Position numbers and translations under genes: made by a program. Source: Alkanindiges illinoisensis DSM 15370 (GTDB lineage: Bacteria; Pseudomonadota; Gammaproteobacteria; Pseudomonadales; Moraxellaceae). Taken from it: a DNA stretch of 32,000 bases. The notes under the pieces are model-generated. The model worked only from the letters and a program-made list of their open reading frames with translations, was not told the DNA's origin and searched no databases. Within the stretch, counting starts at the first letter, position 1. Each line of letters opens with the position of its first letter. This document shows positions 1,035 to 26,610 of this stretch, in pieces. The stretch is from contig NZ_KK211037.1 in NCBI RefSeq assembly GCF_000619845.1, positions 365,941-397,940 of the forward strand, given 5' to 3'.

Positions 1035-3743
1035 TTATGACGCCAGCTTTTGCATTAAATGCTGTGCTTGAGCCTGTTGCTGGGGGTTACCCTGATTGAT
1101 TACTTCACCCAGCAGTTCACGGGCGCTGGCACGTTCACCCAGATTAATATAGCTTTCAGCCAGCTCAAGGTTGGTTTGCTGGACGTCCAGGTTAACCAGA
1201 AATGGAAATTCCTTGGCCAGAAAATCTTCCGGACTGGCAGAAGTATCGGCAGGCGTGACTGATACAGTAGCAGTGGACGTTGGCGTGGTTGAGGTGCCAA
1301 TGTTGAAGTCCTGATCGTCAAAACCATCAGCCCAATTGGTATCCGTAACTTCCAGGTTTTCCAGATTCACCTGCGGCACTATTGGTGCTTTTGCCGCTTC
1401 TTTTGGCTGATCCAGTTCAAGGTTAAAGCGGGTTGGCGCTGGTTCGGGAACCTTTACTTCTTCCAGAACAAAAGAATCATTCAGGTCGAATTCCAGATCA
1501 ATCGGCGCGTCTTCTGGTACTGCTTTCGCCGTAACAGGCTCAAAATCAACAGGCTTGGCCTGTGGTTGTACCTGAGGTTTACTGTCAAACTCATCCAGAT
1601 TCAGGTCAAAAGTGGCTGTTTCGGTCTTGTCAGCAGGTTCCTGTGTAAAACCAAACTCAGCTTCCAGTTCAGCCAGTGACTGGTCGGCAGCAGAAGAAGG
1701 GACTTCCACTTCCTGTGGCATGGCAGGAGCAGATTTTGCATCAAATTCAATAACATTATTTTCAGCAGTGGCAGGTTTGCTACTTTCGAAATTAAAGCTT
1801 AAATCATCAACTGGCGTAAACTCTTCAGCAGGTTTTGGCTGCAACAGCATGCGCATTTTTTCAGCGTGCTGAGTAGTTTCTGGCTGATTAAACGCTGTAA
1901 CAATACTAAACTGCTGTTCAAAACCATCAATTTCATTTTGCAGGGCATACACTTCAAGCAGTTTTACCTGAAGATCAACGCGCTCTGGATTCTTGCCAAT
2001 GGCATCCTTAAGCAGGCCAACCGCCTGAGTATAGCGATCACGCTCAATATAGCTTTGTACTTCCTGCAGCACATCGGTTTTTACCGCCTGAGCTACAGGC
2101 CGGGCAACGGGTACAGGTGCTTCAGTAGCAACCGGCGCCGCTGGGCGGGCAACAGGCTGTTCTTTTGCAGCAACTGGGGCTGGGCGCTTGGCGACTGGGC
2201 GCTTGGCTTTGCCACGGGCAGCAGGCTTTTTGGCAGATTTGCCCATCAAGACCTTGGCTGCAATCGCACCAATGACCACCACTGCTACAGCAATGATGAT
2301 CCAGATCGGGAAACCTCCGCCACTGTCACCTTCTGCGGCGCGTGCCATATTGGGCGCAAACCCAAACAGGCCCATACTGGCAAAAGCAACGATAGGGAGA
2401 ATGGCATTGGCTGCCTTTTTGGGAGGCAGGGCTTGCAGGGGCTGCTTTTGCGCAGGCAGTTTTTTAGCCTGATTGCGCGTTTTCAGCTGATGTTCCAGTT
2501 CGGCGAGTTTAGCGTTTAGCATGGCGATCTTCTTATCGTTTAGCGCGAGTTGAGCGTCCAGCTCACTCACTTCATGTTGCATTAAAACTGTTTTACGACG
2601 TTCTTGACCAATTTTCAAGACTATTTCGCGCGGCAGCGGTTGAAAACCTACATTTTGACCAGTCGTGCTGTTTCCTTGAGCACTTCCTTGCACATTTGGT
2701 GCCACAAGGGTTAGCTCGGCTTTGGGCAGGCGGCCACTACGATTAACTGGCGCACTGCTGGAAGCTGCTGGCGTTTTAGGCACAGGCTTGAATGGCGGTG
2801 TTGTTTGTGGCGTAGCAACCAGTGCCGTGTTTTGTTCACGCTCTGGCAGGATCAGGGTTGCACCACGCTTAAGCTGGTTCGGGTTGCCGGCAATAAAGGC
2901 ATCCTGATTCAGGTTGCGGATCTGCTGCATGATCTGGCCCACAGGCTGCTTGAGCTGTGGTTCCAGTTGCTTGGCAATTTTCCACAATGATTCATTTTTT
3001 TTGACCACATGGCGCGGTTGATTTTTTCTGGGCGCAGTAGACACTTCAACTTCTTTAGGCACAGCCACGGACTTACTGGTAGCTGGCTGACTGGCTGACG
3101 GCTGGGCTTTCATGTCTGGTGGCTGGGCATTTGCCACATTTAACCTGCGCTCGGTACTGGGCAGCGGGCGTTCATTACGACTGGCTGGCACGTCAATGGT
3201 GGGCATGCTGGAAGTAGCTAGGGATACCGGGGGCGTGCTGCTGGCCTGAGCTTGTATCTGTACTTGATTCTGGGCTTGTGTGTTCAGGTTAATAACTTTC
3301 TTGTTTTTATCAGCCGGGTCAATCATGGCACTCACCCGTTGCAGACGCGTATTCTGGCCATTTTTAACCCGCAGTACAAAGTCAACAAATGGTTCATTTA
3401 CCGGCTGGCGGCCACGAATTACAATGACACCACGGTCACTGGAAATGGCTTGAACATTAAAGCTTAATGTCCCGTTATAGGAACCTGATTTCACTCCAAG
3501 GTCAGCCAGTTCCTGAGAAGTGGCCATGCCTACGGAAAGATCCTGTAGTCTCACTGCGCCAAGATCTGATAATGCAACTTCGGCATAGAACGGCTCACCC
3601 AGCGCAGACTTGACCTGAACCGGCTGGATAATCAGGGCATGCGCGAGGGACGGCGAAAGCACGGAAGCAGGCACCAGTGAGAAAGAAAACAGGGGTAATA
3701 ATCCGGTGCTTAAGCTGGCAAAAAGACGCTTACGCAAGACCAT
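1035..3743 (-). CDS. fimV: FimV-family peptidoglycan-binding pilus/polar-organisation protein
   Basis: The 902-aa product has an N-terminal signal sequence and a LysM-like segment (HVVKKNESLWKIAKQL...LKRGATLILP). It also has a coiled-coil, one TM helix (FPIWIIIAVAVVVIGAIAAKVLM), a Pro/Ala/Lys-rich low-complexity stretch and an acidic region. The C-terminus carries the TPR-like FimV motif (LELAESYINLGERASARELLGEVI). The gene sits next to asd, as in many gammaproteobacteria. Confidence 0.85.
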   Translation of the reverse strand: MVLRKRLFASLSTGLLPLFSFSLVPASVLSPSLAHALIIQPVQVKSALGEPFYAEVALSDLGAVRLQDLSVGMATSQELADLGVKSGSYNGTLSFNVQAISSDRGVIVIRGRQPVNEPFVDFVLRVKNGQNTRLQRVSAMIDPADKNKKVINLNTQAQNQVQIQAQASSTPPVSLATSSMPTIDVPASRNERPLPSTERRLNVANAQPPDMKAQPSASQPATSKSVAVPKEVEVSTAPRKNQPRHVVKKNESLWKIAKQLEPQLKQPVGQIMQQIRNLNQDAFIAGNPNQLKRGATLILPEREQNTALVATPQTTPPFKPVPKTPAASSSAPVNRSGRLPKAELTLVAPNVQGSAQGNSTTGQNVGFQPLPREIVLKIGQERRKTVLMQHEVSELDAQLALNDKKIAMLNAKLAELEHQLKTRNQAKKLPAQKQPLQALPPKKAANAILPIVAFASMGLFGFAPNMARAAEGDSGGGFPIWIIIAVAVVVIGAIAAKVLMGKSAKKPAARGKAKRPVAKRPAPVAAKEQPVARPAAPVATEAPVPVARPVAQAVKTDVLQEVQSYIERDRYTQAVGLLKDAIGKNPERVDLQVKLLEVYALQNEIDGFEQQFSIVTAFNQPETTQHAEKMRMLLQPKPAEEFTPVDDLSFNFESSKPATAENNVIEFDAKSAPAMPQEVEVPSSAADQSLAELEAEFGFTQEPADKTETATFDLNLDEFDSKPQVQPQAKPVDFEPVTAKAVPEDAPIDLEFDLNDSFVLEEVKVPEPAPTRFNLELDQPKEAAKAPIVPQVNLENLEVTDTNWADGFDDQDFNIGTSTTPTSTATVSVTPADTSASPEDFLAKEFPFLVNLDVQQTNLELAESYINLGERASARELLGEVINQGNPQQQAQAQHLMQKLAS

Positions 3744-3836
3744 ACTAAAATTCCATTATGCTAGTGAATGATCTTTTTCCGTAGGAAAATGAAGACAATA
3801 AATAGGTTGGATAACAAGATGATTTGTAACATAAAT

Positions 3837-3868
3837 GGGCAAGCGACTCAATCAGAGATTGCTTGCCC
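3837..3868 (-). terminator. Hairpin downstream of asd (probable terminator or attenuator)
   Basis: An 8-bp stem, GGGCAAGC (3837-3844) with GCTTGCCC (3861-3868), lies 25 nt past the asd stop. The trailing minus-strand sequence ATTTATGTT is only moderately T-rich. Confidence 0.5.
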
Positions 3869-3892
3869 ATATATTATGCAGGCCGTATTAGA

Positions 3893-5017
3893 TCAGGCAG
3901 ACTGATGCTCAATCAGCAGGCGTAACATCCGGCGCAGTGGCTCGGCAGCGCCCCATAACAACTGGTCACCCACGGTAAATGCACCCAGATACTGGTTACC
4001 CATGTTCAGCTTACGCATACGGCCAACCGGAACACTAAGTGTGCCAGTAACGGCAACCGGAGTCAGATCAGTCATGCTGGCTTCACGAGTATTGGGCACG
4101 ACTTTAACCCAGTCGTTGGATTCACGGATCATGGCTTCAATTTCATCCATGGGCACATCCTGTTTCAGCTTGATGGTAAGGGCTTGGGAGTGACAACGCA
4201 TGGCGCCAATCCGTACACACAGGCCATCAATTGGGATAATATCTTGGCCTTGCAGACCCAGAATCTTGTTGGATTCGGCCTGGCCTTTCCATTCTTCCTT
4301 GGACTGGCCATTGTCCAGCTGCTTGTCAATATAAGGAATCAGGGAGCCTGCCAGCGGTACACCAAAGTTGGCTTTGGGGAAACCATCGCCACGTTGCAGT
4401 TCGGCCACCTGACGGTCAATATCCAGAATGGCACTGGCCGGATTGTCCAGCAAATCCTTAACGCCATCACGCAGGTAGCCCATGCCGCCAATCAGCTCAC
4501 GCATGTTTTGAGCACCGGCACCGGACGCAGCCTGATAGGTCATGGCAGTCATCCACTCCACCAGATTGTTCTGGTACAGCGCACCCACAGCCATCAGCAT
4601 GAGGGATACAGTACAGTTGCCGCCTACATAATTCTTGATGCCTTTGCTTAAGCCATCTTTAATGACATTGAGGTTTACCGGATCCAGCACAATAATGGCG
4701 TCATCCTGCATGCGCAGGGTACTGGCAGCGTCGATCCAGTAGCCTTTCCAGCCGTCATTGCGCAGCTTGGGAAAAACGTCACTGGTGTAATCGCCGCCCT
4801 GACAGGTCACAATTACATCCATTTGCTTCAGGGCGTTAATATCAGTGGCGTTCAGCAGGGCAGGCGCGGTTTTATTGCCATATGTTGGCGCATCGCCGCC
4901 TGCATTACTGGTTGAAAAATAGTATGGCTCAAAATGCGCAAAGTCATTTTCCTCAACCATACGTTGCATCAGCACAGAACCTACCATGCCGCGCCAACCA
5001 ACCAAACCCACTTTCAT
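3893..5017 (-). CDS. asd: Aspartate-semialdehyde dehydrogenase
   Basis: The product is near-colinear with the E. coli Asd sequence as I remember it: [23 protein letters not shown]..., [52 protein letters not shown] moved the start from the track's 5068 to the internal ATG at 5017, because the family N-terminus begins MKVG. Confidence 0.95.
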
Positions 5018-5200
5018 ATCATTACGCCTCAAGTCGCATGTCGTGTACAAAGTAGCCGAGTTTAACAAAACTACGACCTGCCTGCACGTTTAGCATGCAA
5101 TAAACCATAAAAAGTTCAAATTTTTAGGGCTACTAAATACCCTGCAAAAAATCCTAGAATTAAGGCATGATTAAGAATGAAAGATATTGACTGTTAAAAC

Positions 5201-6307
5201 ATGCCGGAATTCATTTTAAATAGCCTGGAAGTGCTGGCTTTAATCGTGGTGTTTGCAACAGTATGGTCGCTGATTCCCCGTGACGAATGGTGGATTCGCG
5301 ATCTTGATTTTCCACGCTTGCAAATCCTGTCACTGGGCCTGACCGATTTTTTAGTATTGCTGGTACTGCCTTCGCCATGGGATGCATGGCGCGCCGGAAT
5401 CCTGTTATTACTGGCCGCTGCACTGGCCTACCAGATCAAGATGGTGATTCCTTATACCAGGGTTTGGCCCAAGCAGGTTAAACAGGTCACTATCCCGCAC
5501 CCGGATCAGCAGATTTGCATGCTGGTATCCAATGTGTTAACACCCAACCGCAAGCATTATTTGCTGATTGAACAAATCCGTAAGCATCAGCCGGATCTGG
5601 TGCTAACGCTGGAAACTGATAAGGTCTGGGAACAGGCGCTAACCAGCATTGAGCCAGATTATCCGCATGTGGTGCGTATTCCGCTGGATAACCTGTATGG
5701 CATGCATCTGTATAGCCGTTTGCCGCTTGAAAAAACAGAGGTCAAGTTTTTACTGAGCAAGGAAATTCCGTCTATTCATACCACAGTGACCTTGCGCTCT
5801 GGCAAAAAGGTTAAGCTGTATTGCCTGCATCCCAAGCCGCCTAGCCCAACCGAAGCCTATGAATCGACCCTGCGTGATGCCGAGTTGCTGACGGTAGGCC
5901 GCCACATTGCGTCAGTAGACCAGACCTGTATTGTGATGGGTGATTTGAATGATGTGGCCTGGTCACGCACCACACGGTTATTCCAGCGCATTAGTGGATT
6001 GCTTGATCCCCGGGTTGGCCGCCAGTTTGTCAATACATTTCATGCCAGTTATCCCTTGCTTCGCTGGTCACTGGATCACGTGTTTCACAGTACCGATTTT
6101 GCTCTGATTACCATGCAACGGCTGCCCAACATCGGCTCGGATCACTTTCCGGTCTTAACACGTTTACAATACATGCCATCGGCTCAGGCTGAACAGCAAC
6201 CCTTGGAAGTTGAGGCCAGTGACCACGAGGAAGCCAGTGAAAAAATCAAGGAAGGGATAGATAAAGCCGAAAAGGTAGTGACAGATAAAATCGTTATTGG
6301 GCAATAA
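5201..6307 (+). CDS. Endonuclease/exonuclease/phosphatase (EEP) family protein with an N-terminal membrane domain
   Basis: The 368-aa product has 3 predicted N-terminal TM helices followed by EEP-fold motifs (LTLETD, MGDLNDVAWS, SLDHVF, GSDHFPV). Confidence 0.8.
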   Translation: MPEFILNSLEVLALIVVFATVWSLIPRDEWWIRDLDFPRLQILSLGLTDFLVLLVLPSPWDAWRAGILLLLAAALAYQIKMVIPYTRVWPKQVKQVTIPHPDQQICMLVSNVLTPNRKHYLLIEQIRKHQPDLVLTLETDKVWEQALTSIEPDYPHVVRIPLDNLYGMHLYSRLPLEKTEVKFLLSKEIPSIHTTVTLRSGKKVKLYCLHPKPPSPTEAYESTLRDAELLTVGRHIASVDQTCIVMGDLNDVAWSRTTRLFQRISGLLDPRVGRQFVNTFHASYPLLRWSLDHVFHSTDFALITMQRLPNIGSDHFPVLTRLQYMPSAQAEQQPLEVEASDHEEASEKIKEGIDKAEKVVTDKIVIGQ

Positions 6308-6327
6308 TGTGTCAATAAGTGACATTC

Positions 6328-6345
6328 TGTAAGCAATTACTTACA
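6328..6345. promoter_or_regulatory. GacA/UvrY-type upstream activating sequence (GacA box)
   Basis: TGTAAGCAATTACTTACA is a perfect match to the palindromic consensus TGTAAG-N6-CTTACA found upstream of rsmX/Y/Z and csrB-type sRNA genes. It lies about 70 bp upstream of the GGA-rich region. Confidence 0.75.
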
Positions 6346-6404
6346 TTAAGTGCCGAGTTTAGCGTCTATGTTGCCAAGTGGAAAATTTATAAGATAGCTT
6401 CATC

Positions 6405-6592
6405 AGCGCAGGACATGGCACGGAACAGGCCAGCTAAGGATAGACACTCTGAAAAGGGTAATGCTGAACGGAAAAGACAGTATCACGGATCGGATACGGG
6501 ACAGGGAAAGCAGGTTACAATAACACACGAGAGCACAGCCGCAAGCATCAACCCGAGCAGGCAGGACGCCACGCTCGGGTTTGTGTTATTTG
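6405..6592 (+). ncRNA. Csr/Rsm-family protein-sponge sRNA (RsmX/Y/Z- or CsrB-like); the 5' end is approximate
   Basis: Nine GGA motifs fall within 156 nt (6411, 6422, 6438, 6470, 6487, 6492, 6499, 6505, 6564). Most sit in an A(N)GGA context (CAGGAC, ACGGAA, AAGGAT, ACGGAT, AGGGAA), and one lies in the terminator loop. A GacA box is upstream and an intrinsic terminator closes the unit. The TSS was not determined. Confidence 0.7.
6551..6592 (+). terminator. Intrinsic terminator of the Rsm-like sRNA
   Basis: An 8-bp stem, ACCCGAGC (6551-6558) with GCTCGGGT (6573-6580), carries a GGA-containing loop and is followed by TTGTGTTATTT. Confidence 0.7.
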
Positions 6593-6684
6593 AAAATAAT
6601 AAAATTTTTTATAATCAAAATCATGCAATACAATCTAAAAAATCCAATTTTTAGAATGCGCTAATGTGTCGTAAAGAAAACTGC

Positions 6685-7800
6685 TCACAGGGTTTTAATT
6701 ACATCCTCATATAAAGCAAGGGTTTGATCGGTCATTTGGGATAACTGAAAATCCTGTACTGGCGCAGGCGGCATTGGCGTAGCCAGCAACTGGTGAATTT
6801 TTTTAAACAATGCTTCGGCATTTTCGGGTTCTACCAGTCCAGTGGGATAACAGCGATTGAGGATTTCTGCCACCCCGCCACGGTTCCACCCCACTACCGC
6901 CGTGCCCAGTGCCAGTGCTTCCAGCGTAGTACGACCAAACGTTTCCGGCTGGATGGAAAGCGACAGTACCAGATCACTGGCCGCCAGCCATTCGCGAATA
7001 TCACTGCGGTGGCCGACAAAGGTCACATGCTCCTGCAAGTCCATATCCACAACACGCTGATGTAGCTCATCCAGATAGCCCTGTTTTTTTTCATCGGCGC
7101 CGCCAACCACCACCCCATGCACATTAAATTCCTGTTTTAATTCGCTAATCAGGTTGAGCAGGTATTCATGGCCCTTGAGGCGGGTAATGCGGCCGGGCAG
7201 GGTAATCAGGGTTTTGTTTTCCAGATGTGGAAAAAGCTGGTACACCATTTGCCACCAGGCTGCTGAAGGCTGGTAGCCATGTGGAAATTCCTGCAGATTA
7301 ATGCCGCGATAAATCCGCACAATGCTGGATTTGGGGCAGTGCGGATAATGCCGATGAATGTAATCCACCACGCTATCAGATACCGCAATCACCCGTTCTG
7401 CTTTGGTCATAATGGCGCTATAACCATTGACTGAATACATGCCATGTACAGTGCTAATCAAGTGCGGACGGTGCTTTGCAGGAATACCGCGCAGGGCAAA
7501 GTGGGTAATCCATGCGGGCACACGCGAGCGAACATGCACAATGTCCGGCTTTTCCTGCAGGATCAATCGGCGTAGTGGTCTGATCTTAAATAAACTGCCT
7601 AATGATTTTTTATGAATGGCCAGTTGCAGGTGACGCGTCCCTTCCTGTTCCAGTTGCGGCACTAGTCGACCACCATTGGACACCACCACCGAGGTATGGC
7701 CTTTAGCCACTAGGGCACGGCCAATTTCCAGCGTACCACGCTCTACACCACCACTGTTCAGTTCGGGAAGAAGTTGCATGACTTTCATAGGGCGGCTCAT
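6685..7800 (-). CDS. Glycosyltransferase family 4 (GT-B; LPS/LOS core-type)
   Basis: The 371-aa product has the N-terminal motif MKVMQLLPELNSGGVERGTLEIGRAL and a C-terminal GT1/GT4 EX7E-type region (ETFGRTTLEALALGTAVVG). It sits directly downstream of lpxL. Confidence 0.85.
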   Translation of the reverse strand: MSRPMKVMQLLPELNSGGVERGTLEIGRALVAKGHTSVVVSNGGRLVPQLEQEGTRHLQLAIHKKSLGSLFKIRPLRRLILQEKPDIVHVRSRVPAWITHFALRGIPAKHRPHLISTVHGMYSVNGYSAIMTKAERVIAVSDSVVDYIHRHYPHCPKSSIVRIYRGINLQEFPHGYQPSAAWWQMVYQLFPHLENKTLITLPGRITRLKGHEYLLNLISELKQEFNVHGVVVGGADEKKQGYLDELHQRVVDMDLQEHVTFVGHRSDIREWLAASDLVLSLSIQPETFGRTTLEALALGTAVVGWNRGGVAEILNRCYPTGLVEPENAEALFKKIHQLLATPMPPAPVQDFQLSQMTDQTLALYEDVIKTL

Positions 7801-7945: not shown

Positions 7946-8881
7946 TTAATAAATACGTGAGTAACCTTCGGGTCGGGTTTTAAAGCGACGGTGAAACCAC
8001 ATGTACTGGGTGGGAGCCAGGTTTAATTGCTGTTCCATAAGCTGGTTGCTGGTGGTGGCATCAGCCACTTCATCGCTGGTGGGATAGCTTTGCAGGGCTG
8101 GCGTAATGTTCAGGTGATAATGCGGTTTACGATCATCGTTGCGATAAAAATGTAACGACATCACTGCGGCATTGGTCATTTTGATCAGGCGACGCTGTGC
8201 AGTCACGGTTGCCGCAGGAACACCATAAAAAGGCGCCATTACGCCCTGCTTGAGGCCAAAATCCTGATCCGGTGAATACCATACAATCTTTTTGTCTTTA
8301 AGCCGACGCACCAGCAAACGAATATTGTCGTGATCAATTTGCTGCTCATAAATGGTATGGCGCGAGCGATAAATCAGCCAGTCCAGCATGGGGTTATTTT
8401 GCGGACGGTACATCACATCCGGTGTGAAATAATAGCTGCACAGCAAGCCACCGGCATCCAGCAGGGTAGAGTGCAGGCCTAGTAGTAAAATGCCACGTTG
8501 TTCAGCCTGCGCCTGTTGCAAGTGTTCAAGCCCGCTAATACTCACCTTGCCATTAAAGCGCTTGGGGTTATACCATGCGGTCAGGCTTTCAAAAATGCCG
8601 ATCCCCATGTTTTCAAATACATCTTGGCCCATGCGCTGGTATTCAGGCTCAGACAGGCCCGGATAACAAACCCGCAGGTTGGTAAGTGTGGTTTTGCGTC
8701 TGGATTTTAGGGCTTTCCAGAGCAACTGGCCAATGGCACGGCCAAGACTGCGTTGCACCAGCCACGGTGCATAGGCCCAGGGCAACAGCAGGAAAATGCC
8801 CAGCCAGATGCCCCAGTATTTTGGGGCAAGAAACGCAGGTAAGAATTGAGGTTGTGCAGAATGGGGATGTGATGAACTCAT
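7946..8881 (-). CDS. lpxL: Lipid A biosynthesis lauroyl/myristoyl acyltransferase (LpxL/HtrB family)
   Basis: The product is colinear with E. coli LpxL as I remember it: LAPKYWGIWLG, the TM helix, the catalytic H of GLHSTLLDAGG, YRPQNNPMLDW, WYSPDQDFG, APTQYMWFHRRFKTRP. I set the start at the ATG at 8881, which overlaps the upstream gene's stop as ATGA. The track's 8887 is a TTG. Confidence 0.9.
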   Translation of the reverse strand: MSSSHPHSAQPQFLPAFLAPKYWGIWLGIFLLLPWAYAPWLVQRSLGRAIGQLLWKALKSRRKTTLTNLRVCYPGLSEPEYQRMGQDVFENMGIGIFESLTAWYNPKRFNGKVSISGLEHLQQAQAEQRGILLLGLHSTLLDAGGLLCSYYFTPDVMYRPQNNPMLDWLIYRSRHTIYEQQIDHDNIRLLVRRLKDKKIVWYSPDQDFGLKQGVMAPFYGVPAATVTAQRRLIKMTNAAVMSLHFYRNDDRKPHYHLNITPALQSYPTSDEVADATTSNQLMEQQLNLAPTQYMWFHRRFKTRPEGYSRIY

Positions 8882-9594
8882 GAACAATGGGCAGTTTTCT
8901 TCCAGTCTGCCAATTGTGCCGGGGTCGCTGTGGCTAAATCAATGGATAATGCCAGCTCGGAACCAGACTTTTTAAGCTGGCGACCCGGAATTTGCATATT
9001 TTTGGCCAGTTGAGCCAGGGTTTGCTGCATGCTGGCTTCATCATATTTGGCCTGACTGTGCTGAAGCACATAAGCATAGTCACCGCGCTTATGGATGAGC
9101 AGGCCAATAAAACGCTCATTATTCTGGCTTAATACCAGATAACCCGAGGCGCCAAGCTGGGAGCGTACGGGTTTAACAGCACCCTGTGCTTGTGTCTGGA
9201 TTTGTGCATTATAGAGCTGGGTATATAGCTGGCCAATCTGGCTGCTCAAGCCGGAAATATCCTGTGTGCTGGCACCGGGCAGCTTGGGGTTGTTGTTCAG
9301 GTTAATCGCATCAATCCGGTAAAAGCGGCCAATCTGGTCAGTAATGCTTAAGCTATTGCCTTCGGGCGTGCAGCTATCCTGTAGGGCCAGCTTGCCTGCC
9401 AGTACGGCTGAATTGAGGTCCAGATTGTAGGTTTGTGCCGGGGCGTAATACACCTGATTGGTTTGGACTAGTGGCTTGTTGGGCTGAATTTTTGCCGCAT
9501 GACCATGCCCAAAATGACTACAGCCACTCATGGCCATAGACAGGCCAGCCATAACCCATAAGGTTTTGATTGGTGTTTTTTTCATACCCAGCAT
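8878..9594 (-). CDS. Hypothetical lipoprotein
   Basis: The signal peptide has a lipobox (MLGMKKTPIKTLWVMAGLSMAMSGC). I moved the start to the ATG at 9594, which sits 7 nt after GGAGAG and avoids overlapping the uup stop. I recognise no family. Confidence 0.6.
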   Translation of the reverse strand: MLGMKKTPIKTLWVMAGLSMAMSGCSHFGHGHAAKIQPNKPLVQTNQVYYAPAQTYNLDLNSAVLAGKLALQDSCTPEGNSLSITDQIGRFYRIDAINLNNNPKLPGASTQDISGLSSQIGQLYTQLYNAQIQTQAQGAVKPVRSQLGASGYLVLSQNNERFIGLLIHKRGDYAYVLQHSQAKYDEASMQQTLAQLAKNMQIPGRQLKKSGSELALSIDLATATPAQLADWKKTAHCS

Positions 9595-11560: not shown

Positions 11561-11885
11561 AAACAAGGGTTTCCATAGATGAGGAGAGCAAGACCGTGGA
11601 CAAACAGTTACGCCAGCTGGAAAGCACATTTTCCGCACGGATTGAGAATTTGTAAGTTTAAATTGCTAAGATTAAGTATGCTTTTGATTGCAAACGAAAT
11701 TTTTTAATAATTTAAACCTTACTCACAAAGTATTTTGGCGTATTTCATTAAAATGCTTTAGCCATGCAGGATATAGAATATTAGCATTTTTCCTTTGAGG
11801 AGACATCATCTCTGATAACAAAGCTAAAGCAAAAATTTAGGCGATTAAATAAATTAAAATAAAGTCTACTACGCTAATTAATAGC

Positions 11886-12860
11886 GTGGCTTGCCATCTT
11901 TATCTATACCAAGTCCTAAGGGGGACTAATAATCTGGTCTTTCCAAATAGCCGGGGACAGGTGGAATGGTATACCGATCTATTACGGCGTCTATGTGAAA
12001 AGGAAGGTATTCCTAGTCAGTTCTGGGCGCATCATGGCAATTTATCCAAGGAATATCGAGAAGATGCTGAAAAAGCTTTAAAAGATAAGTCCCAGAATGC
12101 TACAGCAATTTGTACTACTACCCTTGAGCTTGGCATTGATATTGGACATGTCAAAAGTATCTGTCAAATTGGTTCTCCACCATCGGTTGCCAGTCTCAGA
12201 CAGCGCCTTGGCCGTTCGGGAAGGCGTAAGGACGAGCCTGCTATATTAAGAGGATATTGTATAGAATGTGAGCTAACACCTGATTCAGGTCTCTCAGATC
12301 GTATTCGGGAAGGACTGCTACAGATGATAGCTATGATTCAACTATTGCTTGAAGGCTGGTTTGAACCACCGCGGATTAAGGGTCTACATTATTCAACACT
12401 GGTGCAGCAGATACTATCGGTTATTGCCCAGAAAGGCGGAGCTACAGCCGCTGAGCTATGGCATACATTGATTCATCAAGGGCCTTTTGAGGGGATAGTA
12501 CGAGAAGACTTTCTTTCATTACTACGGGGAATGGGCGAAGAGCTGTTACTCATGCAGGAAAGTACAGGGCTTTTATTGCATGGTGAGAAGGGTGAAAATC
12601 TCGTTAATCACTATGATTTTTTTGCAGCATTTGTTTCAACGGAGGAGTTTAGACTGATTGTTGAGGGAAAAGCACTTGGTTCTCTACCCATTAAGCATAT
12701 TCTTATCCCTGGGCAATACCTGATTTTTGCAGGAAGGCGCTGGCGTGTCTTGGATGTTGATGTAGAGAAAAAAGTAATATCGGTGAAAGCTGACAAAGGT
12801 AGAGCACCACCTAACACCCGCCTATTTATAGTTCAGGTGAGGTTGGTAGATCTTTTCTAG
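11886..12860 (+). pseudogene. Fragment of a large Lhr-like DEAD/DEAH-box helicase (RecA2 plus WH/associated domains only)
   Basis: The fragment contains helicase motifs IV-VI only (LVFPNSR, TTTLELGIDIG, QRLGRSGRR) and a downstream domain (LLQMIAMIQLLLEGWFEPP). The ATP-binding RecA1 half (motifs I-III) is missing. An in-frame stop lies at 11850-11852 just upstream, and the reading frame ends abruptly after ...KADKGRAPP. Confidence 0.65.
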
Positions 12861-13156
12861 CCCTTGCATTACCAAACGGTTAATCAGCAAGACATCATCG
12901 GTGGCATGCGGTAGGTTAATAAGCAGGAACGGATGACAATAGGGCTGGACAAAGCGGTTGGTTTTAATGCTAATGCCGACCCTACCACACAGTAGTTTTT
13001 GTTTACTTAACTTGGCCAACCATGCGTGAACTGGACGTATTGACAGGCTGTTCTAATCATAAATTTTAAGTATTGTGCTTAGGTGAGCGTATTGACCTGC
13101 TGGTTGTTGTTTAGGAAACGTGAGGTAGTAATCGGCATTTTTTATTTTCAGATTTA

Positions 13157-13480
13157 ATGTTGTGTACTTGTTATTCTCCATTGTTTAAAACATATACACG
13201 GTATACTCGTGACTCTCAGGATAAATTAAGAAAAAAGCAAATGAACAGAGTTTTAATGAATATTATTGATGTGATAAATAATAGTGATGGGACCAAAGAT
13301 CAAATCTTTATGTATCAAGAGAAAGAAGTGAGAATAAGTACAAAAGGATTTAAGTCACTGGTCAATACTGAAATAAGTTATTTTAATCTTAAAGAAGAAC
13401 GCGTTACGCCTTATTTAGAGGGTTTCCGGAAGTTCGCTATCGGTAGTACCACACACTACAGTACTAAAAGCCTTCATTAA
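13157..13480 (+). CDS. Hypothetical protein (alternative start ATG 13241)
   Basis: This is an open frame in AT-rich DNA, followed 14 nt later by a good terminator. I see no recognisable motif and only a weak RBS. Confidence 0.3.
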   Translation: MLCTCYSPLFKTYTRYTRDSQDKLRKKQMNRVLMNIIDVINNSDGTKDQIFMYQEKEVRISTKGFKSLVNTEISYFNLKEERVTPYLEGFRKFAIGSTTHYSTKSLH

Positions 13481-13493
13481 AAAATAACTTTAT

Positions 13494-13521
13494 AAAAAGC
13501 CGCCCAATCAGACGGCTTTTT
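13494..13521 (+). terminator. Rho-independent terminator
   Basis: The sequence AAAAAGCCG-cccaatcaga-CGGCTTTTT forms a stem with a trailing T-run. The A-tract upstream would make it bidirectional. Confidence 0.7.
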
Positions 13522-13933
13522 ATTGGCTTAATAGTTTCTCTGGGTATTGGCAGGCCAATAGGAATTTTATCGGGGTAGTACACATGGATCGTGACTACGG
13601 AATGTACTTTTTAGTAGGAACATTAGTCTTATTATTACTATATTTATTTATATAGCTGACCAATTTTCTTTGGACAATTTACATTACTTTTAAATAAAAG
13701 ATTGTATAACTGGATTTATAGGCGTATAAATACTAAACCGAAAGGTTATTGGTTAAAGTCCATGACTGATTTCAGGTTAAATACTCTATAAAATAATTAT
13801 AGCTTTATTAAGTCTCTCGTTCCGCAGTTTTATTTATAATTCTCCGTTTTCATAAGATTTTAGCTTCATAAATTATTTTTTGAGTGATCTATATGGATTA
13901 AATTCATATTAATTTTTCAAATAGGATTATAAA

Positions 13934-14143
13934 ATGTCTACTACTGCTACCGGCGTTGTTAAATGGTTTAATGAAACTAAAGGTTTTGGATTTATTCAAC
14001 AAGAATCTGGACCAGATTTATTTGCCCATTATAGTGAAATTCAAAGTAATAGTTTTAAGACTCTTCATGAGGGACAGCAAGTACAGTTTACTATTACCGA
14101 GGGTCAAAAAGGCCCTCAGGCAAGTAAAATTTACCCTCTTTAA
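13934..14143 (+). CDS. Cold-shock protein, CspA family
   Basis: The 69-aa product is a cold-shock domain with RNP1/RNP2-type motifs ([24 protein letters not shown]). An AGGA sits 7 nt before the ATG, and a long AT-rich leader lies upstream. Confidence 0.9.
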
Positions 14144-14198
14144 ATCATCTTTTAACTGATAGGTAGGCCAATACGTCTATCTATTCTTTTTAAGTTTA

Positions 14199-14229
14199 AA
14201 ACCCTTACTTAAATGGTAGGGGTTTTTTA
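14199..14229 (+). terminator. Rho-independent terminator after csp
   Basis: The stem pairs CCCTTAC (14202-14208) with GTAGGGG (14216-14222) and is followed by T6. Confidence 0.65.
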
Positions 14230-14408
14230 TAGCTTAAATTCAAAACTATATTTTTAGGATATTTAGCGGGCAATATATTAATACTAAAATTGAAGACCTA
14301 ATCAATGTGTATTATAACAATAGTAAGAAATGCCATCAGTGCAAGCCTTGTATTAATACTTCTATCCTGTAGCATTAATCAGATAATCCCTCAATCAAGG
14401 CAACCCTA

Positions 14409-14828
14409 ATGGTTGTTCACAAAGCTGTAGGGCGATTTGCTGTTAAGCAGAAAATTGATTTCAAATACTATTTTGAAATCACAGGATTTGAAAAAGTCTC
14501 AGGTACCGGCAGCATTATTATTGATAGTAAAACCTGGACACAAGAAAGTATTAAAAAATCAATTAATAAGTTTGTTTTAGCACAAGTAAATGAATTTTTA
14601 GTAAATAAAAACATTACTCAGACTTCCAACTTTGGAGTAGATACCGGTATTGAAATACTAGCGGTGCATGAGCCTACGATAGCGCAGCGTCTTACTGAGC
14701 ATGGTGGTAAGGCTCAGGTTACCAGCCAAAAGTACATTGTGTTTATAGTAGGGCTTGCCATAGTAATCATGTCCTTTCTTGTTCTATGTATGAATCACTA
14801 TTCTTTCGCGTTTAACTCTTTCAAGTGA
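14409..14828 (+). CDS. Hypothetical tail-anchored membrane protein
   Basis: The 139-aa product has a soluble N-terminal part and a single C-terminal TM helix (KYIVFIVGLAIVIMSFLVLCMNHY). That tail resembles the C-terminus of the next gene. Confidence 0.45.
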   Translation: MVVHKAVGRFAVKQKIDFKYYFEITGFEKVSGTGSIIIDSKTWTQESIKKSINKFVLAQVNEFLVNKNITQTSNFGVDTGIEILAVHEPTIAQRLTEHGGKAQVTSQKYIVFIVGLAIVIMSFLVLCMNHYSFAFNSFK

Positions 14829-15085
14829 AATAAAGTTAGATAATAACTTGACGTAACCAATATCTTACTTAAAAAATAGACGAGTAAATGTTTTAATAAT
14901 ATAGATGATATTAAATCTATCAGTATCTAATTAATATTACAGTTAATAAATTTATTAGAAAAATTGTTCTATCTTTAAACTGATATGTCATAAAAAATCT
15001 TTAGAGAAGTTACGAACTACTCGTAAAAACAAGTGTATATTACAAAGTGATAAAAAATCTACCTTATTATTATATCGAGTATTTA

Positions 15086-15694
15086 ATGCCGCATCCTACG
15101 AGATTCTCGTATGCAAGCACATCCACTGCTTTACCTTCTACAATTAAGGATCATCTGGTTAGTATAACTAGAAATGCTGAAACTAATACCGTCCGTGGAG
15201 AAATGGCCGGTATTTTGATTTACGGGAATAAATGTTTTTTTCATTGCATTGAAGCACCTGCCTCAACAATTAACAGAATTTATAACGAAGCTGTTCAGAA
15301 TCCACTTGACCAACGGTTTGAATTATTAAAACGTGAGTTAATTTCAGAGCGTTATTTTAAAGGCTGGGAAATTAAATATTTTGTTCGGGAAAAAGCACTA
15401 CAAGAGTTTTTTCTTGAGCATTATGGAAAGCATGAATTTGATCCTTACATGCTTGAAGGAAATCGCCTTGATGCCTTTATTAAGCTACTGGCACGTCCGA
15501 AGCATGAGCGATTGTCAGGATTTCCTTGCCCTACAGAGGCTTCCATATTCGCAGGCAGTTCAAGTTCAGGCCGATTGCTAAATACCCATTACATTGGCTT
15601 TATGATAATGGTAGCCATCCTTATTTTTTTATTTTACCTCATGATGGATCACTACATGGGCTGGGATACTTTTCAGAGCATATATCGCTCATAA
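15086..15694 (+). CDS. BLUF-like domain protein with a C-terminal transmembrane anchor (non-canonical; Gln replaced by His)
   Basis: The domain follows the BLUF pattern: RFSYAS (Tyr9), GILIYGNKCFFHCIEA, DQRF, FKGWEIKYF (Trp94). I chose the start at ATG 15086 (MPHPTRFSYAS) over the track's GTG at 15047. The C-terminal TM is YIGFMIMVAILIFLFYLMMDHY. Confidence 0.75.
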   Translation: MPHPTRFSYASTSTALPSTIKDHLVSITRNAETNTVRGEMAGILIYGNKCFFHCIEAPASTINRIYNEAVQNPLDQRFELLKRELISERYFKGWEIKYFVREKALQEFFLEHYGKHEFDPYMLEGNRLDAFIKLLARPKHERLSGFPCPTEASIFAGSSSSGRLLNTHYIGFMIMVAILIFLFYLMMDHYMGWDTFQSIYRS

Positions 15695-15732
15695 AATGAA
15701 AACTCCTAAAATAAGGGTATAGGGATTTTGAC

Positions 15733-16025
15733 CATATCCTTATCAAATCCAAATTAAGTCGCCGTATTGCATTACTTGAGGAGCGCTTGAATATTCATTT
15801 AATTTAGCGGTCATCCCGACAGTTTAAGGCTATCGGAACCGGACAGCAGTGTTATTAATATTGTTAGGCAATGCTTGCTGAAGCCAAGGCTGGACAAGAG
15901 TTTATCGATTCCCATATTGATGAACCACAGGGTCTTATTCGGATGAGTTGTCCCCACCATTGCTGTATTCCCAGATCAAGGATATGCTTGCATTACTCCT
16001 TAACAACCCCCTTTAAATTCCTAAG
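15733..16025 (+). pseudogene. LysR-family transcriptional regulator remnant (truncated and frameshifted)
   Basis: One frame reads ...KLSRRIALLEERLNIHLI*, the LysR HTH recognition-helix region, and is interrupted by stops. A second frame gives RSSRQFKAIGTGQQCY, then AMLAEAKAGQEFIDSHIDEPQGLIRMSCP, the typical linker leading into the co-inducer domain. A further frameshift follows (PPLLYSQIKDMLALLLNNPL*). The N-terminal 30 aa or so and most of the effector domain are missing. Confidence 0.6.
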
Positions 16026-19769: not shown

Positions 19770-19884
19770 TTATAGCGTGTATTGAGAGTACATCAATCAT
19801 GCTGCGATTTGCATCATTGGGTACATACACTCATGATGGAAAGGCTTGAACTTAAGGCCATTTGCATCACAGTCTATTTAAAGT

Positions 19885-20032
19885 TTGCTAGGGTTCCGGT
19901 TTTTGTAGGTCACAAAGATGCCTGGTCCGAGAGCAAACGGTTCTAACCAATTTTTGGTTTGGAACTACACGGCGGGACAAAAGCCCGGGAGATAAAACAC
20001 CTGCACCAGCCAGTGTGTACTCTCTGTTTTTT
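19885..20032 (+). promoter_or_regulatory. Guanidine-I riboswitch (ykkC-yxkD class) with a terminator-type expression platform
   Basis: All three conserved blocks of the ykkC aptamer are present in order: CTAGGGTTCCGG (19888-), CTGGTCCGAGAG (19922-) and ACACGGCGGGACAAAAGCCCGGGAGA (19967-19992). Downstream, a hairpin forms from GAGA...ACACCTG-caccagc-CAG(T)GTGT...TCTC, followed by T6 (20027-20032). Its 5' arm reuses the aptamer's 3' GGGAGA, as expected for an ON switch. Confidence 0.9.
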
Positions 20033-20058
20033 GGTTTGTCCTGTTGTGGAGTATGAGC

Positions 20059-20823
20059 ATGTCTTATTCATTATATTCTGTTGATCAGCCATTATGGTAC
20101 GAGCGATTACCCGGCGGACATCACTGGTCTGGCCGTGTTCGCCGCGGTACTGTGCTGCAATTTAAGGCCGAAGCAAGTAACGCCAACCTGTCGGTACTGT
20201 TTTTTAATGCCGAGGAAAAGCTGGAACGCTATAACATGCCGGATACCCTAAAGGCACAGCACACGGCATTTTTAACGGCCGGCCATGTCTGTTATTCCGA
20301 CATGGGCCGGGTGATGTGCTCAATCATTCGTGACGATACCGGCTGGATTGATACACTTTGCGGTGTGGCCGATGCTAGCCAGATTCAGGCGCAATACGGC
20401 AGTAAAACCTTTGGTGACGCCCGCAATGCCATGTTCCGCAATGGACGTGATGGCTTTCTGGTGGAAATGGAAAAGTGGGGACTGGGCCAGCAGGATCTGG
20501 TGGCCAATATCAACCTGTTCAGCAAGGTCAGTGCTGATGACCACGATGACAATCAGGGCGCACTGGTGTGGGCTGAGCAGCACAGCAAGGCAGATAACAT
20601 CATTGAGCTGCGTTTTGAGATGGAAACCCTGCTGATATTGTCCAGCGCGCCGCATCCACTCAATCCGGCGACCATTTACCAGCCTGCTGATATTTCAATC
20701 ACCGCTTATAAAGCAAACCCCATTGCACCTGATGACCTGTGCCGCAATTCCTGCCCGCAAAACCAGCGCGGTTTTGCCAATAACGCCCGCTATTTTGCTG
20801 AGCCCAGTTTAAGCCAATTTTGA
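20059..20823 (+). CDS. DUF1989 / urea-carboxylase-associated family protein (carboxyguanidine deiminase subunit type)
   Basis: This is the first gene after the riboswitch and one of two paralogous DUF1989-type ORFs preceding the carboxylase. I set the start at ATG 20059, 7 nt after GGAG; the track's 20044 is a TTG. Confidence 0.85.
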   Translation: MSYSLYSVDQPLWYERLPGGHHWSGRVRRGTVLQFKAEASNANLSVLFFNAEEKLERYNMPDTLKAQHTAFLTAGHVCYSDMGRVMCSIIRDDTGWIDTLCGVADASQIQAQYGSKTFGDARNAMFRNGRDGFLVEMEKWGLGQQDLVANINLFSKVSADDHDDNQGALVWAEQHSKADNIIELRFEMETLLILSSAPHPLNPATIYQPADISITAYKANPIAPDDLCRNSCPQNQRGFANNARYFAEPSLSQF

Positions 20824-20889
20824 CCAGAATAGTGACGAATTGAGCGTATCTAATTTCGTGCATCACGACTGAATTTAAGGAATAACAAC

Positions 20890-21588
20890 ATGGTCATTCA
20901 ATTTAAAGAAAGTACTTTACTGGAAAGCAATGCCATCCTGAATGAAGTTTGCCCTGCCGGTGAAGCCTGGATGGGCCTGGTCAAAAAAGGCCAGACGTTT
21001 CGTATTGTGGATCTGGAGGGCAATCAGGCCGTTGATACCCTGTTTATTAGTGCGCATGATGCCAATGAACGCTACAGCCCTAGCCAGACTATTGTGGCTA
21101 GCAGCCAGCTTTATCTGGGGCTGGGTTCAAGGTTGTATAGCAATGAAAACCGTCATATTGCCACCATCACAGCAGATACCTGTGGTCGCCATGACACCCT
21201 GGGTGGCGCCTGTTCGTGCGAAAGCAATACCGTGCGCTATGCTCATGACAAATATCCCATGCACAGTTGCCGCAATAATTTTATGTACGCGCTGGCCAAC
21301 CACCCGATTGCCCAAAAGGCAGGTTTAACCGTGCGGCATATTGGTGCCAACATTAACTTTTTTATGAATGTGCCCGTAACGCCAGACGGCCATTTACGCT
21401 TTGCTGATGGCATTTCTGCTGCCGGTAAATATGTGGAGCTGCAAGCCCAGATTGATTTGATTGTGCTGATTTCCAACTGTCCGCAGCTTAATAATCCGTG
21501 TAATGCCTACAACCCGACAGCCATTCGCTTGCTGGTCTGGGACACCATCGCAGATTCAACCACCCCACACTGCGGAGAGGCAGCCTGA
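20890..21588 (+). CDS. DUF1989 / urea-carboxylase-associated family protein (second carboxyguanidine deiminase subunit type)
   Basis: The 232-aa product is a paralogue of the previous gene (TFRIVDLEGNQAVDTLF, Cys-rich GGACSCESN). Its stop lies 1 nt before the carboxylase ATG. Confidence 0.85.
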   Translation: MVIQFKESTLLESNAILNEVCPAGEAWMGLVKKGQTFRIVDLEGNQAVDTLFISAHDANERYSPSQTIVASSQLYLGLGSRLYSNENRHIATITADTCGRHDTLGGACSCESNTVRYAHDKYPMHSCRNNFMYALANHPIAQKAGLTVRHIGANINFFMNVPVTPDGHLRFADGISAAGKYVELQAQIDLIVLISNCPQLNNPCNAYNPTAIRLLVWDTIADSTTPHCGEAA

Positions 21589-21589
21589 T

Positions 21590-25245
<3,656 letters not shown>

Positions 25246-25249
<4 letters not shown>

Positions 25250-26610
25250 CTGAGCACACACGAGAATTTGATTTGACTGATCTCAGTATTAGTAATCTGC
25301 GGACGGCTTATGCACAGGGCCTGACTCCGCTGCAACTGGTGGAATATCTGCTTGAGCGCATACAGGCGGAAGATTCTGGGGACAGCCATCAGGTCTGGAT
25401 TTATCAGCTCAGTGCAGACTGGCTGCGCGATTATACGCAACAACTGGCCCGTAAAAACCCGGCTGACTTGCCACTGTATGGGATTCCCTTTGCTATCAAG
25501 GACAATATTGATCTGGCAGGCGTGCCAACCACAGCCGCGTGCCCGAACTTTGCTAATGTACCAACAACTTCTGCCACCGTGGTGCAAAAGCTCATGGATG
25601 CTGGGGCCATTCCACTGGGCAAAACCAATCTGGACCAGTTTGCTACGGGATTAAATGGTACGCGGTCACCGTATGGCGTAGCGCGCAATAGCATTAATCC
25701 GGAATATATTGCTGGTGGTTCCAGCTCAGGTTCGGCACTGACAGTGGCTTTAAATCTGGCGTCATTTGCATTAGGCACCGATACGGCTGGTTCAGGCCGG
25801 GTGCCTGCTGCCTTTAATCAATTGGTGGGTGTAAAACCAACCTGCGGCTTATTGTCCAATAGTGGGGTTGTGCCTGCGTGCCGCAGTCTGGACAGTATAT
25901 CGATTTTTGCCAAAAATGCCGCCGATAGCCTTACCGTGCTAGAGGTTGCGCAAGGCTTTGATCCTAAAGAGCCGTATAGCAAGCCCATCCTGCTGGCAGA
26001 GCCAAAACTAGTAAAAACCATTGGCATTCCCCGGGCGGATCAGTTGCAGTTCTTTGGCGATAGTGACTATGCGGCGCTGTTTGCCAAGGCAATTCATCAA
26101 CTGCAAGCTCAGGGCTTTAGCGTGCAGGAAGTAGATTTTACGCCATTTCTGGAAGCGGCAAAATTGCTGTATGCCGGGCCATGGGTGGCTGAGCGCTACC
26201 ATGTGGTGCAGCATTTAATCCAGCAGCAGCCGGACAGTTTATTGCCCGTCATCCGTCAAATTATTGGCAAGGCCACGCAATTTAGTGCCGTGGATTGTTT
26301 TGCTGCCTTTTACCAGTTGGCCGAATACAAGTGTCAGGCTAACCAGATCATGGCATCGGTGGATGTAATGCTCACGCCAACGGCAGGCACTATTTTTAAA
26401 ATTAATGACATGCTAGCCAATCCGGTTGAACTCAATAACCAGCTCGGCTATTACACCAACTTCATGAACCTGCTGGATTTCTCGGCAATTGCGCTCCCAG
26501 CCGGACAGCGTGCTGATGGCTTGCCGTTTGGTATTACCTTCTTTGCAGCGGCGGCACAGGATTTAACCCTGCTTGATCTGGCGCAGCAACTGGAACAGGT
26601 ACTGGGCTAA
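25246..26610 (+). CDS. Allophanate hydrolase, amidase-signature (AS) catalytic domain only
   Basis: The product has the AS motifs FAIKDNIDLAG (catalytic Lys) and GGSSSGSA (Ser-cisSer). Its ATG overlaps the carboxylase stop (ATGA). At 454 aa it ends at the usual boundary between the AS domain and the C-terminal domain. Confidence 0.9.

Follow-up and report, generated by a model that had tools for sequence, protein, structure and literature searches.

Does the spacer downstream of an EEP-family gene in Alkanindiges illinoisensis DSM 15370 hold a small protein, the untranslated end of its neighbour, or an RNA gene of its own? The question arises from a stretch of 32,000 nucleotides (contig NZ_KK211037.1, positions 365,941 to 397,940 of the forward strand), the whole of which is called the window here and is numbered from its first letter. 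Within it, 377 bp lie between the stop of the EEP-family gene (5201-6307, plus strand) at 6307 and the end of a GT4 glycosyltransferase gene (6685-7800, minus strand) at 6685. A first-pass annotation had noted in this spacer an open reading frame (ORF) of 111 amino acids at 6319-6654, and the spacer length and ORF coordinates proved exact; it had also proposed that the spacer encodes a small RNA (sRNA) acting as a sponge of the Csr/Rsm type. The present analysis supports that proposal, through the display of GGA motifs, the conservation of an upstream box, its spacing and a terminator, and the lack of conservation of the ORF. An independently transcribed sRNA gene of the Csr/Rsm sponge class is regarded as the correct reading with a probability of roughly 0.86. 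The RNA, of about 190 nt and with nine GGA motifs, was delimited at 6401-6591 on the plus strand by its match to a covariance model built from Acinetobacter only. It has the marks of its class: over-represented and exposed GGA motifs, a GacA box with a predicted promoter of its own, and a non-coding body that ends in a Rho-independent terminator.

The GacA box and the promoter

The sequence TGTAAGCAATTACTTACA at 6328-6345, a palindrome to which no strand is assigned, is a perfect copy of the consensus TGTAAG-N6-CTTACA of GacA/UvrY-type upstream activating boxes. It bears out the earlier claim of a perfect box, is the sole perfect match found by the motif scan in the window, and none of 100 dinucleotide shuffles produced another. 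On its own, a box is significant only if perfect, since a match with up to two mismatches is expected by chance 1.19 times per window. The comparison set consisted of 80 loci with relatives of the EEP protein, taken from Acinetobacter, Alkanindiges and metagenome-assembled genomes of Moraxellaceae. A GacA-type box with at most two mismatches was found just past the EEP stop in 78 of these 80 loci and a perfect one in 13, to which is added the public contig L081, which is the window's own contig.

A GacA box at a fixed spacing marks the genes of Csr/Rsm sRNAs in gammaproteobacteria. Counted from the first base of the box, the 5' anchor of the RNA (AUCAGC) lies at exactly 72 nt in 77 of the 80 loci and at 70-71 nt in the remaining three, and the RNA in the window likewise begins exactly 72 nt downstream of its box. 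Between the two, an alignment of 60 distinct promoters contains a -10 element (TAAGAT at 6390-6395, plus strand; family consensus TAnnnT) whose position and T-A...T pattern are conserved, and no recognisable -35 element was seen in the same alignment. Such a fixed geometry of box and -10 element, with no -35, is typical of an activator-dependent promoter, and since the -10 element lies at 6390-6395, transcription is predicted to start at about 6400-6402.

The columns midway between the box and the -10 element include another conserved block in these 60 promoters (GCGTCT at 6362-6367, plus strand; consensus GCGAAT), at a distance from the -10 element too great for a -35; a second DNA-binding factor may bind here. 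A promoter pair returned by a simple scan (GTGACA-17-TACATT) was disregarded, as it merely overlaps the GacA box.

GGA motifs and terminator

GGA motifs occur at 6411, 6422, 6438, 6470, 6487, 6492, 6499, 6505 and 6564, that is, nine in 156 nt as first counted, with about 3.0 expected from the composition of the window (the first estimate had been 2-3). Seven of the nine stand in the A(N)GGA context, in keeping with the claim that most do, and a tenth GGA at 6380 lies upstream of the RNA. The density of 9 per 160 nt is the maximum of the window over both strands, for which the means are 2.07 (plus) and 1.55 (minus), and the sRNA stretch is the only cluster with at least eight GGA in the 32 kb.

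The Rho-independent terminator at 6550-6592 (plus strand) is composed of the stem AACCCGAGC / GCUCGGGUU, an inner stem GGC/GCC, the loop AGGAC containing GGA 6564, and a U-rich tail. The hairpin (6550-6581) with its tail has a folding energy of -23.9 kcal/mol and a z-score of -4.73, which bears out the GC-rich, U-tailed terminator with AGGA in its loop described from the sequence at first sight. It was missed by a simple terminator scan, probably due to an internal loop that breaks the scan's rule of an uninterrupted stem. Taken alone, these features of the window make a good, though not conclusive, case for a sponge RNA.

Structure of the RNA

The structure was assembled from minimum free energy folds, clade-wise alifold consensus folds and single-sequence folds, and all of its elements are on the plus strand. 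A closing helix, H1, pairs UCAGCG (6403-6408) with UGCUGA (6462-6467) and so encloses three hairpins, H2 to H4; it is paired in 99.6% of cases over 52 sequences and includes a compensatory change from AU to GC. Hairpin H2 (6416-6432) carries GGA 6422 in its loop, with a probability of being unpaired of 0.98; its three modelled pairs all covary, and the loop GGA is found in 49 of 49 homologues. Hairpin H3 (6434-6443, CUA-AGGA-UAG), taken from the consensus fold of the Alkanindiges clade, presents GGA 6438 in a loop of 4 nt with an unpaired probability of 0.91. Hairpin H4 (6446-6459) lacks GGA and is capped by a GNRA tetraloop, which reads GAAA in the window and GUAA in relatives; it is a clade-specific insertion, present only in the window and its four closest relatives (loci L001-L004) and gapped in all Acinetobacter rows.

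Downstream of H1, GGA 6470 lies in a single-stranded linker around that position and is followed by hairpin H5 (6480-6497, GUAUC-ACGGAUCG-GAUAC), the helix of which is 96.4% paired across homologues. The tandem GGA pair of the first-pass annotation is indeed present in H5, but only its first member, GGA 6487, is displayed in the loop; GGA 6492 is largely contained in the 3' arm of the stem, with an unpaired probability of 0.12. A single-stranded linker, GGGACAGGGA (6499-6507), comes next and holds GGA 6499, which is specific to the clade and has an intermediate unpaired probability of 0.48, and GGA 6505, which is invariant. Further on, at 6532-6540, lies a block without GGA, AGCACAGCC (family form AGCACARCC), whose columns are invariant in alignments of 33 and of 28 sequences. 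Compensatory changes are seen in nine of the 12 modelled pairs of the terminator, whose cells are 98.8% paired. The model omits a sixth helix, H6 (GC-AUGGAU-GC in Acinetobacter), for which no consistent alignment was obtained.

On the whole, the folding that had been proposed as a check shows GGA motifs that are mostly unpaired: seven of the nine have an unpaired probability of at least 0.75, compared with a mean of 0.47 for the whole RNA, and four of them sit in hairpin loops, that of the terminator included.

Conservation across Moraxellaceae

The whole arrangement, consisting of the box, the 72-nt spacing, the TAnnnT -10 element, the GGA-rich RNA and the terminator, follows the orthologous EEP gene in 77-78 of the 80 loci, with the family form of the terminator being CCCGAG...CAGGA...CUCGGG. 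Only Acinetobacter sequences, 28 in number, went into the covariance model R1; the window and the other four members of the Alkanindiges clade were left out. When applied to the 32-kb window, it returned a single match, at 6400-6591 on the plus strand, which spans model positions 1-175 of 175 with 57.4 bits and an E-value of 1.2e-10. Among 54 sources searched with the same model, 51 have one full-length match at the corresponding place, and the exceptions are L008, cut by a contig end, L073, with a weak match of 27 bits, and L078, a short contig with none.

An RNAalifold run on the raw MAFFT alignment of the two genera gave just 10 pairs, because the hairpins were misaligned by 1 nt between the clades, and it was replaced by clade-wise folds and a model-based alignment. 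In the latter, which is fitted to R1, 96.5% of pair cells are canonical, as against 23-43% when the partners are slid by 1-3 columns, and compensatory double changes occur in 14 of 24 modelled pairs, a number reached in none of 500 shuffles. Six of the GGA motifs (6411, 6422, 6438, 6487, 6505 and 6564) occupy aligned positions in every one of 49 distinct full-length homologues, 63% of which have GGA 6470, and GGA 6492 and 6499 belong to the Alkanindiges clade only and are missing from all Acinetobacter copies. The sequences between the GGA motifs drift while the sites stay, and therefore selection acts on the GGA motifs themselves.

The ORF has no comparable record. The 111-amino-acid frame ends after 42 codons in L001 (97% identity in the adjacent EEP protein) owing to a 1-nt insertion, indels bring stops into it in L002 and L003, and in L004 it has no start and several stops. 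No reading frame is kept at the spacer in the Acinetobacter loci compared, and the ORF itself has no Pfam match. The idea that the RNA is hidden under an ORF call was not upheld: gene calls on contig L081 (Logan SRR3313971_50, which contains the exact locus at 3608-3984) leave the 377-bp spacer empty, and the spacer is for this reason unannotated rather than mis-annotated as a protein.

Two other observations concern the distribution of the family. The orthologous copy in Acinetobacter rudis (L073, 4271-4374) is degenerate, with three GGA, the 27-bit match and a box with two mismatches, and it may be decaying in this species. A phage-borne copy was considered and rejected: the invariant 16-mer GAAAGCACAACCTCAT has 13 exact matches in viral contigs, and these give no match to the model (best 17.6 bits, E-value 0.07).

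Relation to known regulatory RNAs

The locus is not as new as was first thought. In A. baylyi, the element is located between the EEP gene and gltP, and an 'rsmY' was predicted computationally at this place in strain ADP1 (ACIAD0480/gltP, all in the same orientation, -> -> ->; Kulkarni et al. 2006, PMC1488887). For ADP1 that prediction comprises three sRNAs of the kind and a fourth, weaker candidate without the box. In A. baumannii AB5075, an expressed sRNA of 169 nt, sRNA97, was mapped to 3495801-3495969 on the minus strand (Hamrock et al. 2024, PMC11472050 Suppl. Table 3), flanked on the same strand by gltP (3494075-3495361) and by an 'endonuclease' (EEP) gene (3496051-3497172) (PMC11472050). 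Its length agrees with that of the R1 matches in the A. calcoaceticus-baumannii complex, 173-174 nt with the U-tail included. The levels of sRNA97, 3,900-61,000 transcripts per million (TPM), give it the ninth highest mean in the table (PMC11472050 Suppl. Table 3), and they are about 50-600 times those of the EEP gene, at about 50-110 TPM (PMC11472050). As in the window, the Acinetobacter sRNA lies directly downstream of the orthologous EEP gene on the same strand; in the window this gene adjoins asd and the RNA is immediately 3' of it. Judged by gene order and sequence, the Alkanindiges RNA is the syntenic counterpart of both ADP1 'rsmY' and AB5075 sRNA97. A full-text literature search for 'sRNA97' found nothing.

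Beyond their location, the Acinetobacter and Alkanindiges copies have in common the 72-nt spacing, the -10 element, the order of helices, six aligned GGA and the CAGGA terminator loop. They differ in that the window copy is about 15 nt longer through the clade-specific insertion (H3/H4, GNRA hairpin), has two extra GGA (6492 and 6499) and ends in a terminator that is richer in GC and interrupted by an internal loop. The perfect consensus of its box contrasts with the TGTACG of most Acinetobacter copies, and the downstream gene encodes a glycosyltransferase instead of gltP.

The most abundant sRNA of AB5075 is a different one, sRNA2 (154783-154939, minus strand, 157 nt; PMC11472050 Suppl. Table 3). 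Its level, like that of sRNA97, is several times higher in the early-stationary sample without induction than in samples induced with arabinose (PMC11472050). It is possible that sRNA2 is another Csr-type RNA and shares the control of sRNA97.

With regard to better known sponges, RsmY, RsmZ and RsmX of Pseudomonas resemble the RNA in the TGTAAG-N6-CTTACA box, in GGA motifs placed in loops and linkers, in a GGA-bearing terminator loop, in size (110-190 nt) and in the mechanism proposed, titration of RsmA/CsrA. Homology in sequence or structure between them and the window RNA is not detectable with the Rfam models at E-values up to 10, and only the Moraxellaceae family has this order of helices and the AGCACARCC block. 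The enterobacterial CsrB and CsrC also sequester CsrA, are activated by UvrY (the GacA orthologue) with BarA, and are built from repeated GGA hairpins; CsrB, however, has about 370 nt and some 18-22 GGA, while the window RNA is half that size with nine sites and has no Rfam match. Because the Rfam models fail even at E-values up to 10, the RNA is outside the Rfam families RsmX, RsmY, RsmZ, CsrB and CsrC, and it belongs to Csr/Rsm as a functional class rather than to any of these families.

As for partners of the RNA in Acinetobacter, strain ADP1 possesses gacA, gacS and csrA, with genetic epistasis consistent with a cascade (PMC12455638). Reviews citing Singh et al. 2025 name CsrB, CsrC and CsrD as CsrA-sequestering sRNAs of A. 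baumannii, and CsrB is enriched with CsrA in RNA immunoprecipitation followed by quantitative PCR (PMC13516227, PMC13643297).

Points against a sponge RNA and alternative explanations

Several results weigh against assigning the RNA to the Csr/Rsm sponges. With Rfam 15, no Csr/Rsm family reached its gathering score anywhere in the window, and the scan suggested in the first-pass annotation (RsmX, RsmY, PrrB_RsmZ, CsrB) was negative: across the spacer (6250-6700), RsmX, RsmY, RsmZ, CsrB and CsrC gave no match at E-values up to 10, the low-threshold matches there being at chance level (mir-7948, snoRNAs, U4, SurA). Four orthologous loci gave no match to an Rfam Csr/Rsm family either. The excess of GGA is smaller when measured against dinucleotide-preserving shuffles of the RNA, which contain 5.5 +/- 1.6 GGA and reach nine in 153 of 5000 cases (p of about 0.03). 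The fold of the whole RNA is unexceptional (z = -1.75), and the pair counts reported above were taken from a model-fitted alignment, a procedure that favours the structure. The window copy is also divergent, with 57 bits compared to 150-190 bits for Acinetobacter copies. No CsrA-like ORF is present in the 32-kb window, which also holds no gacA or gacS and is the only part of the Alkanindiges genome that the search for these genes covered. It is likely but unproven that sRNA97 is one of CsrB, CsrC and CsrD. Finally, the sponge model leaves unexplained the AGCACARCC block, which reads GAAAGCACAACCUCAU in Acinetobacter, stands just 5' of the terminator after an A-rich linker and is conserved as strongly as the GGA sites.

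The last point is among those that would suit a conserved trans-acting sRNA that works by base-pairing, possibly with Hfq, in which the GGA motifs are incidental or serve as seeds for UCC-containing targets; the A-rich linker and the invariant block would then have a function, and CsrA binding at the EEP-linked locus is itself deduced by analogy. Such an RNA would hardly be expected to keep six separate GGA invariant while the intervening sequence drifts, and the position of these motifs in the loops of hairpins with covarying stems is the architecture of CsrA sites rather than that of a single seed. The box at its fixed spacing, a mark of gammaproteobacterial Csr/Rsm sRNA genes, also speaks for a sponge. 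In addition, abundant as it is, sRNA97 is not among the rows listed in the RNA-RNA chimera tables, which fits, if weakly, a role other than base-pairing. A base-pairing sRNA is thus considered improbable.

The RNA might alternatively be the 3' untranslated region and terminator of the EEP gene, or a product processed from that region. It starts 94 nt past the stop codon of that gene and is encoded on the same strand; a terminator is also required for the gene, and the linkage between the two is kept in all 80 loci. Between species, however, the box lies at varying distances from the EEP stop but at a constant distance from the RNA, and the conserved -10 element together with a box at an invariant 72 nt from the RNA 5' end points to a promoter belonging to the RNA. 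The A. baumannii counterpart is, moreover, annotated as a discrete sRNA of 169 nt whose TPM exceeds that of the EEP gene about 50-600 times, and a derivation from the EEP transcript is accordingly given a very low probability. As to a protein of 111 amino acids begun with GTG at 6319-6654 (plus strand), the frame is unbroken in the window genome, but the possibility is close to nil and already refuted by comparison, with the frame broken in all four nearest relatives and unconserved in Acinetobacter, no Pfam match, no call by the gene caller, and an ORF that would start inside the GacA box region, overlap the promoter and the RNA and read through a strong terminator.

Proposed mechanism

For the sponge RNA, by analogy with the Gac-controlled sRNAs of other gammaproteobacteria, we infer GacA binding, dependence on GacA, CsrA binding and the regulatory outcome. 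Phosphorylated GacA would bind the palindrome at 6328-6345, the centre of which is about 65 nt before the start site, and would activate a promoter that has the -10 element TAAGAT (6390-6395) and lacks a -35. Transcription would proceed from about 6401 and stop at the terminator (6550-6592) to yield an RNA of about 190 nt. This RNA is predicted to expose seven to eight accessible GGA, four of them in hairpin loops and the others in single-stranded linkers. With two GGA sites bound per CsrA dimer, one RNA could hold roughly three to four dimers. The accumulated RNA would titrate CsrA off its mRNA targets; binding of CsrA is a plausible expectation in view of the Csr sRNAs of A. baumannii.

A more elaborate scheme is conceivable, although doubtful as a whole. 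According to it, the Moraxellaceae RNA would be an evolutionarily independent sponge family in which the AGCACARCC block and the A-rich linker recruit Hfq or a turnover or processing factor of the CsrD/RNase E type, which would make the RNA a regulator with two inputs, and the GNRA hairpin and two additional GGA of the Alkanindiges clade would change its capacity for CsrA.

Gene neighbourhood and other features of the window

The local gene order begins with fimV and continues with asd (3893-5068, minus strand), the EEP-family gene, the glycosyltransferase gene and an lpxL-type acyltransferase gene (7946-8887, minus strand). The EEP-family protein is 97% identical to its A. illinoisensis counterpart.

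Two regions unrelated to the sRNA were also noted. A Guanidine-I riboswitch (RF00442, 91.7 bits) at 19877-19993 on the plus strand is upstream of the genes in 20044-26610, which comprise two DUF1989 genes, a gene for a 1248-amino-acid enzyme of the urea/guanidine-carboxylase type and an amidase gene; together they form the classic arrangement of a guanidine-degradation operon. A low-GC island at about 11700-16000 has a GC fraction of 0.26-0.40, compared with 0.48 for the window, and long stretches poor in ORFs. Its ORFs include a helicase fragment of 324 amino acids with the C-terminal helicase domain only (11886-12860), a CspA-like protein of 69 amino acids (13934-14143) and a BLUF-like protein of 215 amino acids (15047-15694). 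The island may represent acquired or decaying DNA.

Significance

Sponge RNAs are the output of the Gac-Csr cascade, a master switch of gammaproteobacteria. In Acinetobacter, CsrA is required for growth in rich media and affects a virulence switch, desiccation survival and biofilm formation. The value of the present finding lies in annotation, since neither the mechanism nor the kind of RNA is new. The 2006 prediction of 'rsmY' in ADP1 is now tied to the abundant and uncharacterised sRNA97 of AB5075, and the alignment A3 together with the covariance model R1 could seed an Rfam family. EEP-linked sponge RNAs have been missed by Rfam-based annotation across Moraxellaceae; with the coordinates of the gene now fixed in Alkanindiges, the EEP-linked sRNA emerges as conserved in at least two genera of the family with an invariant promoter geometry.

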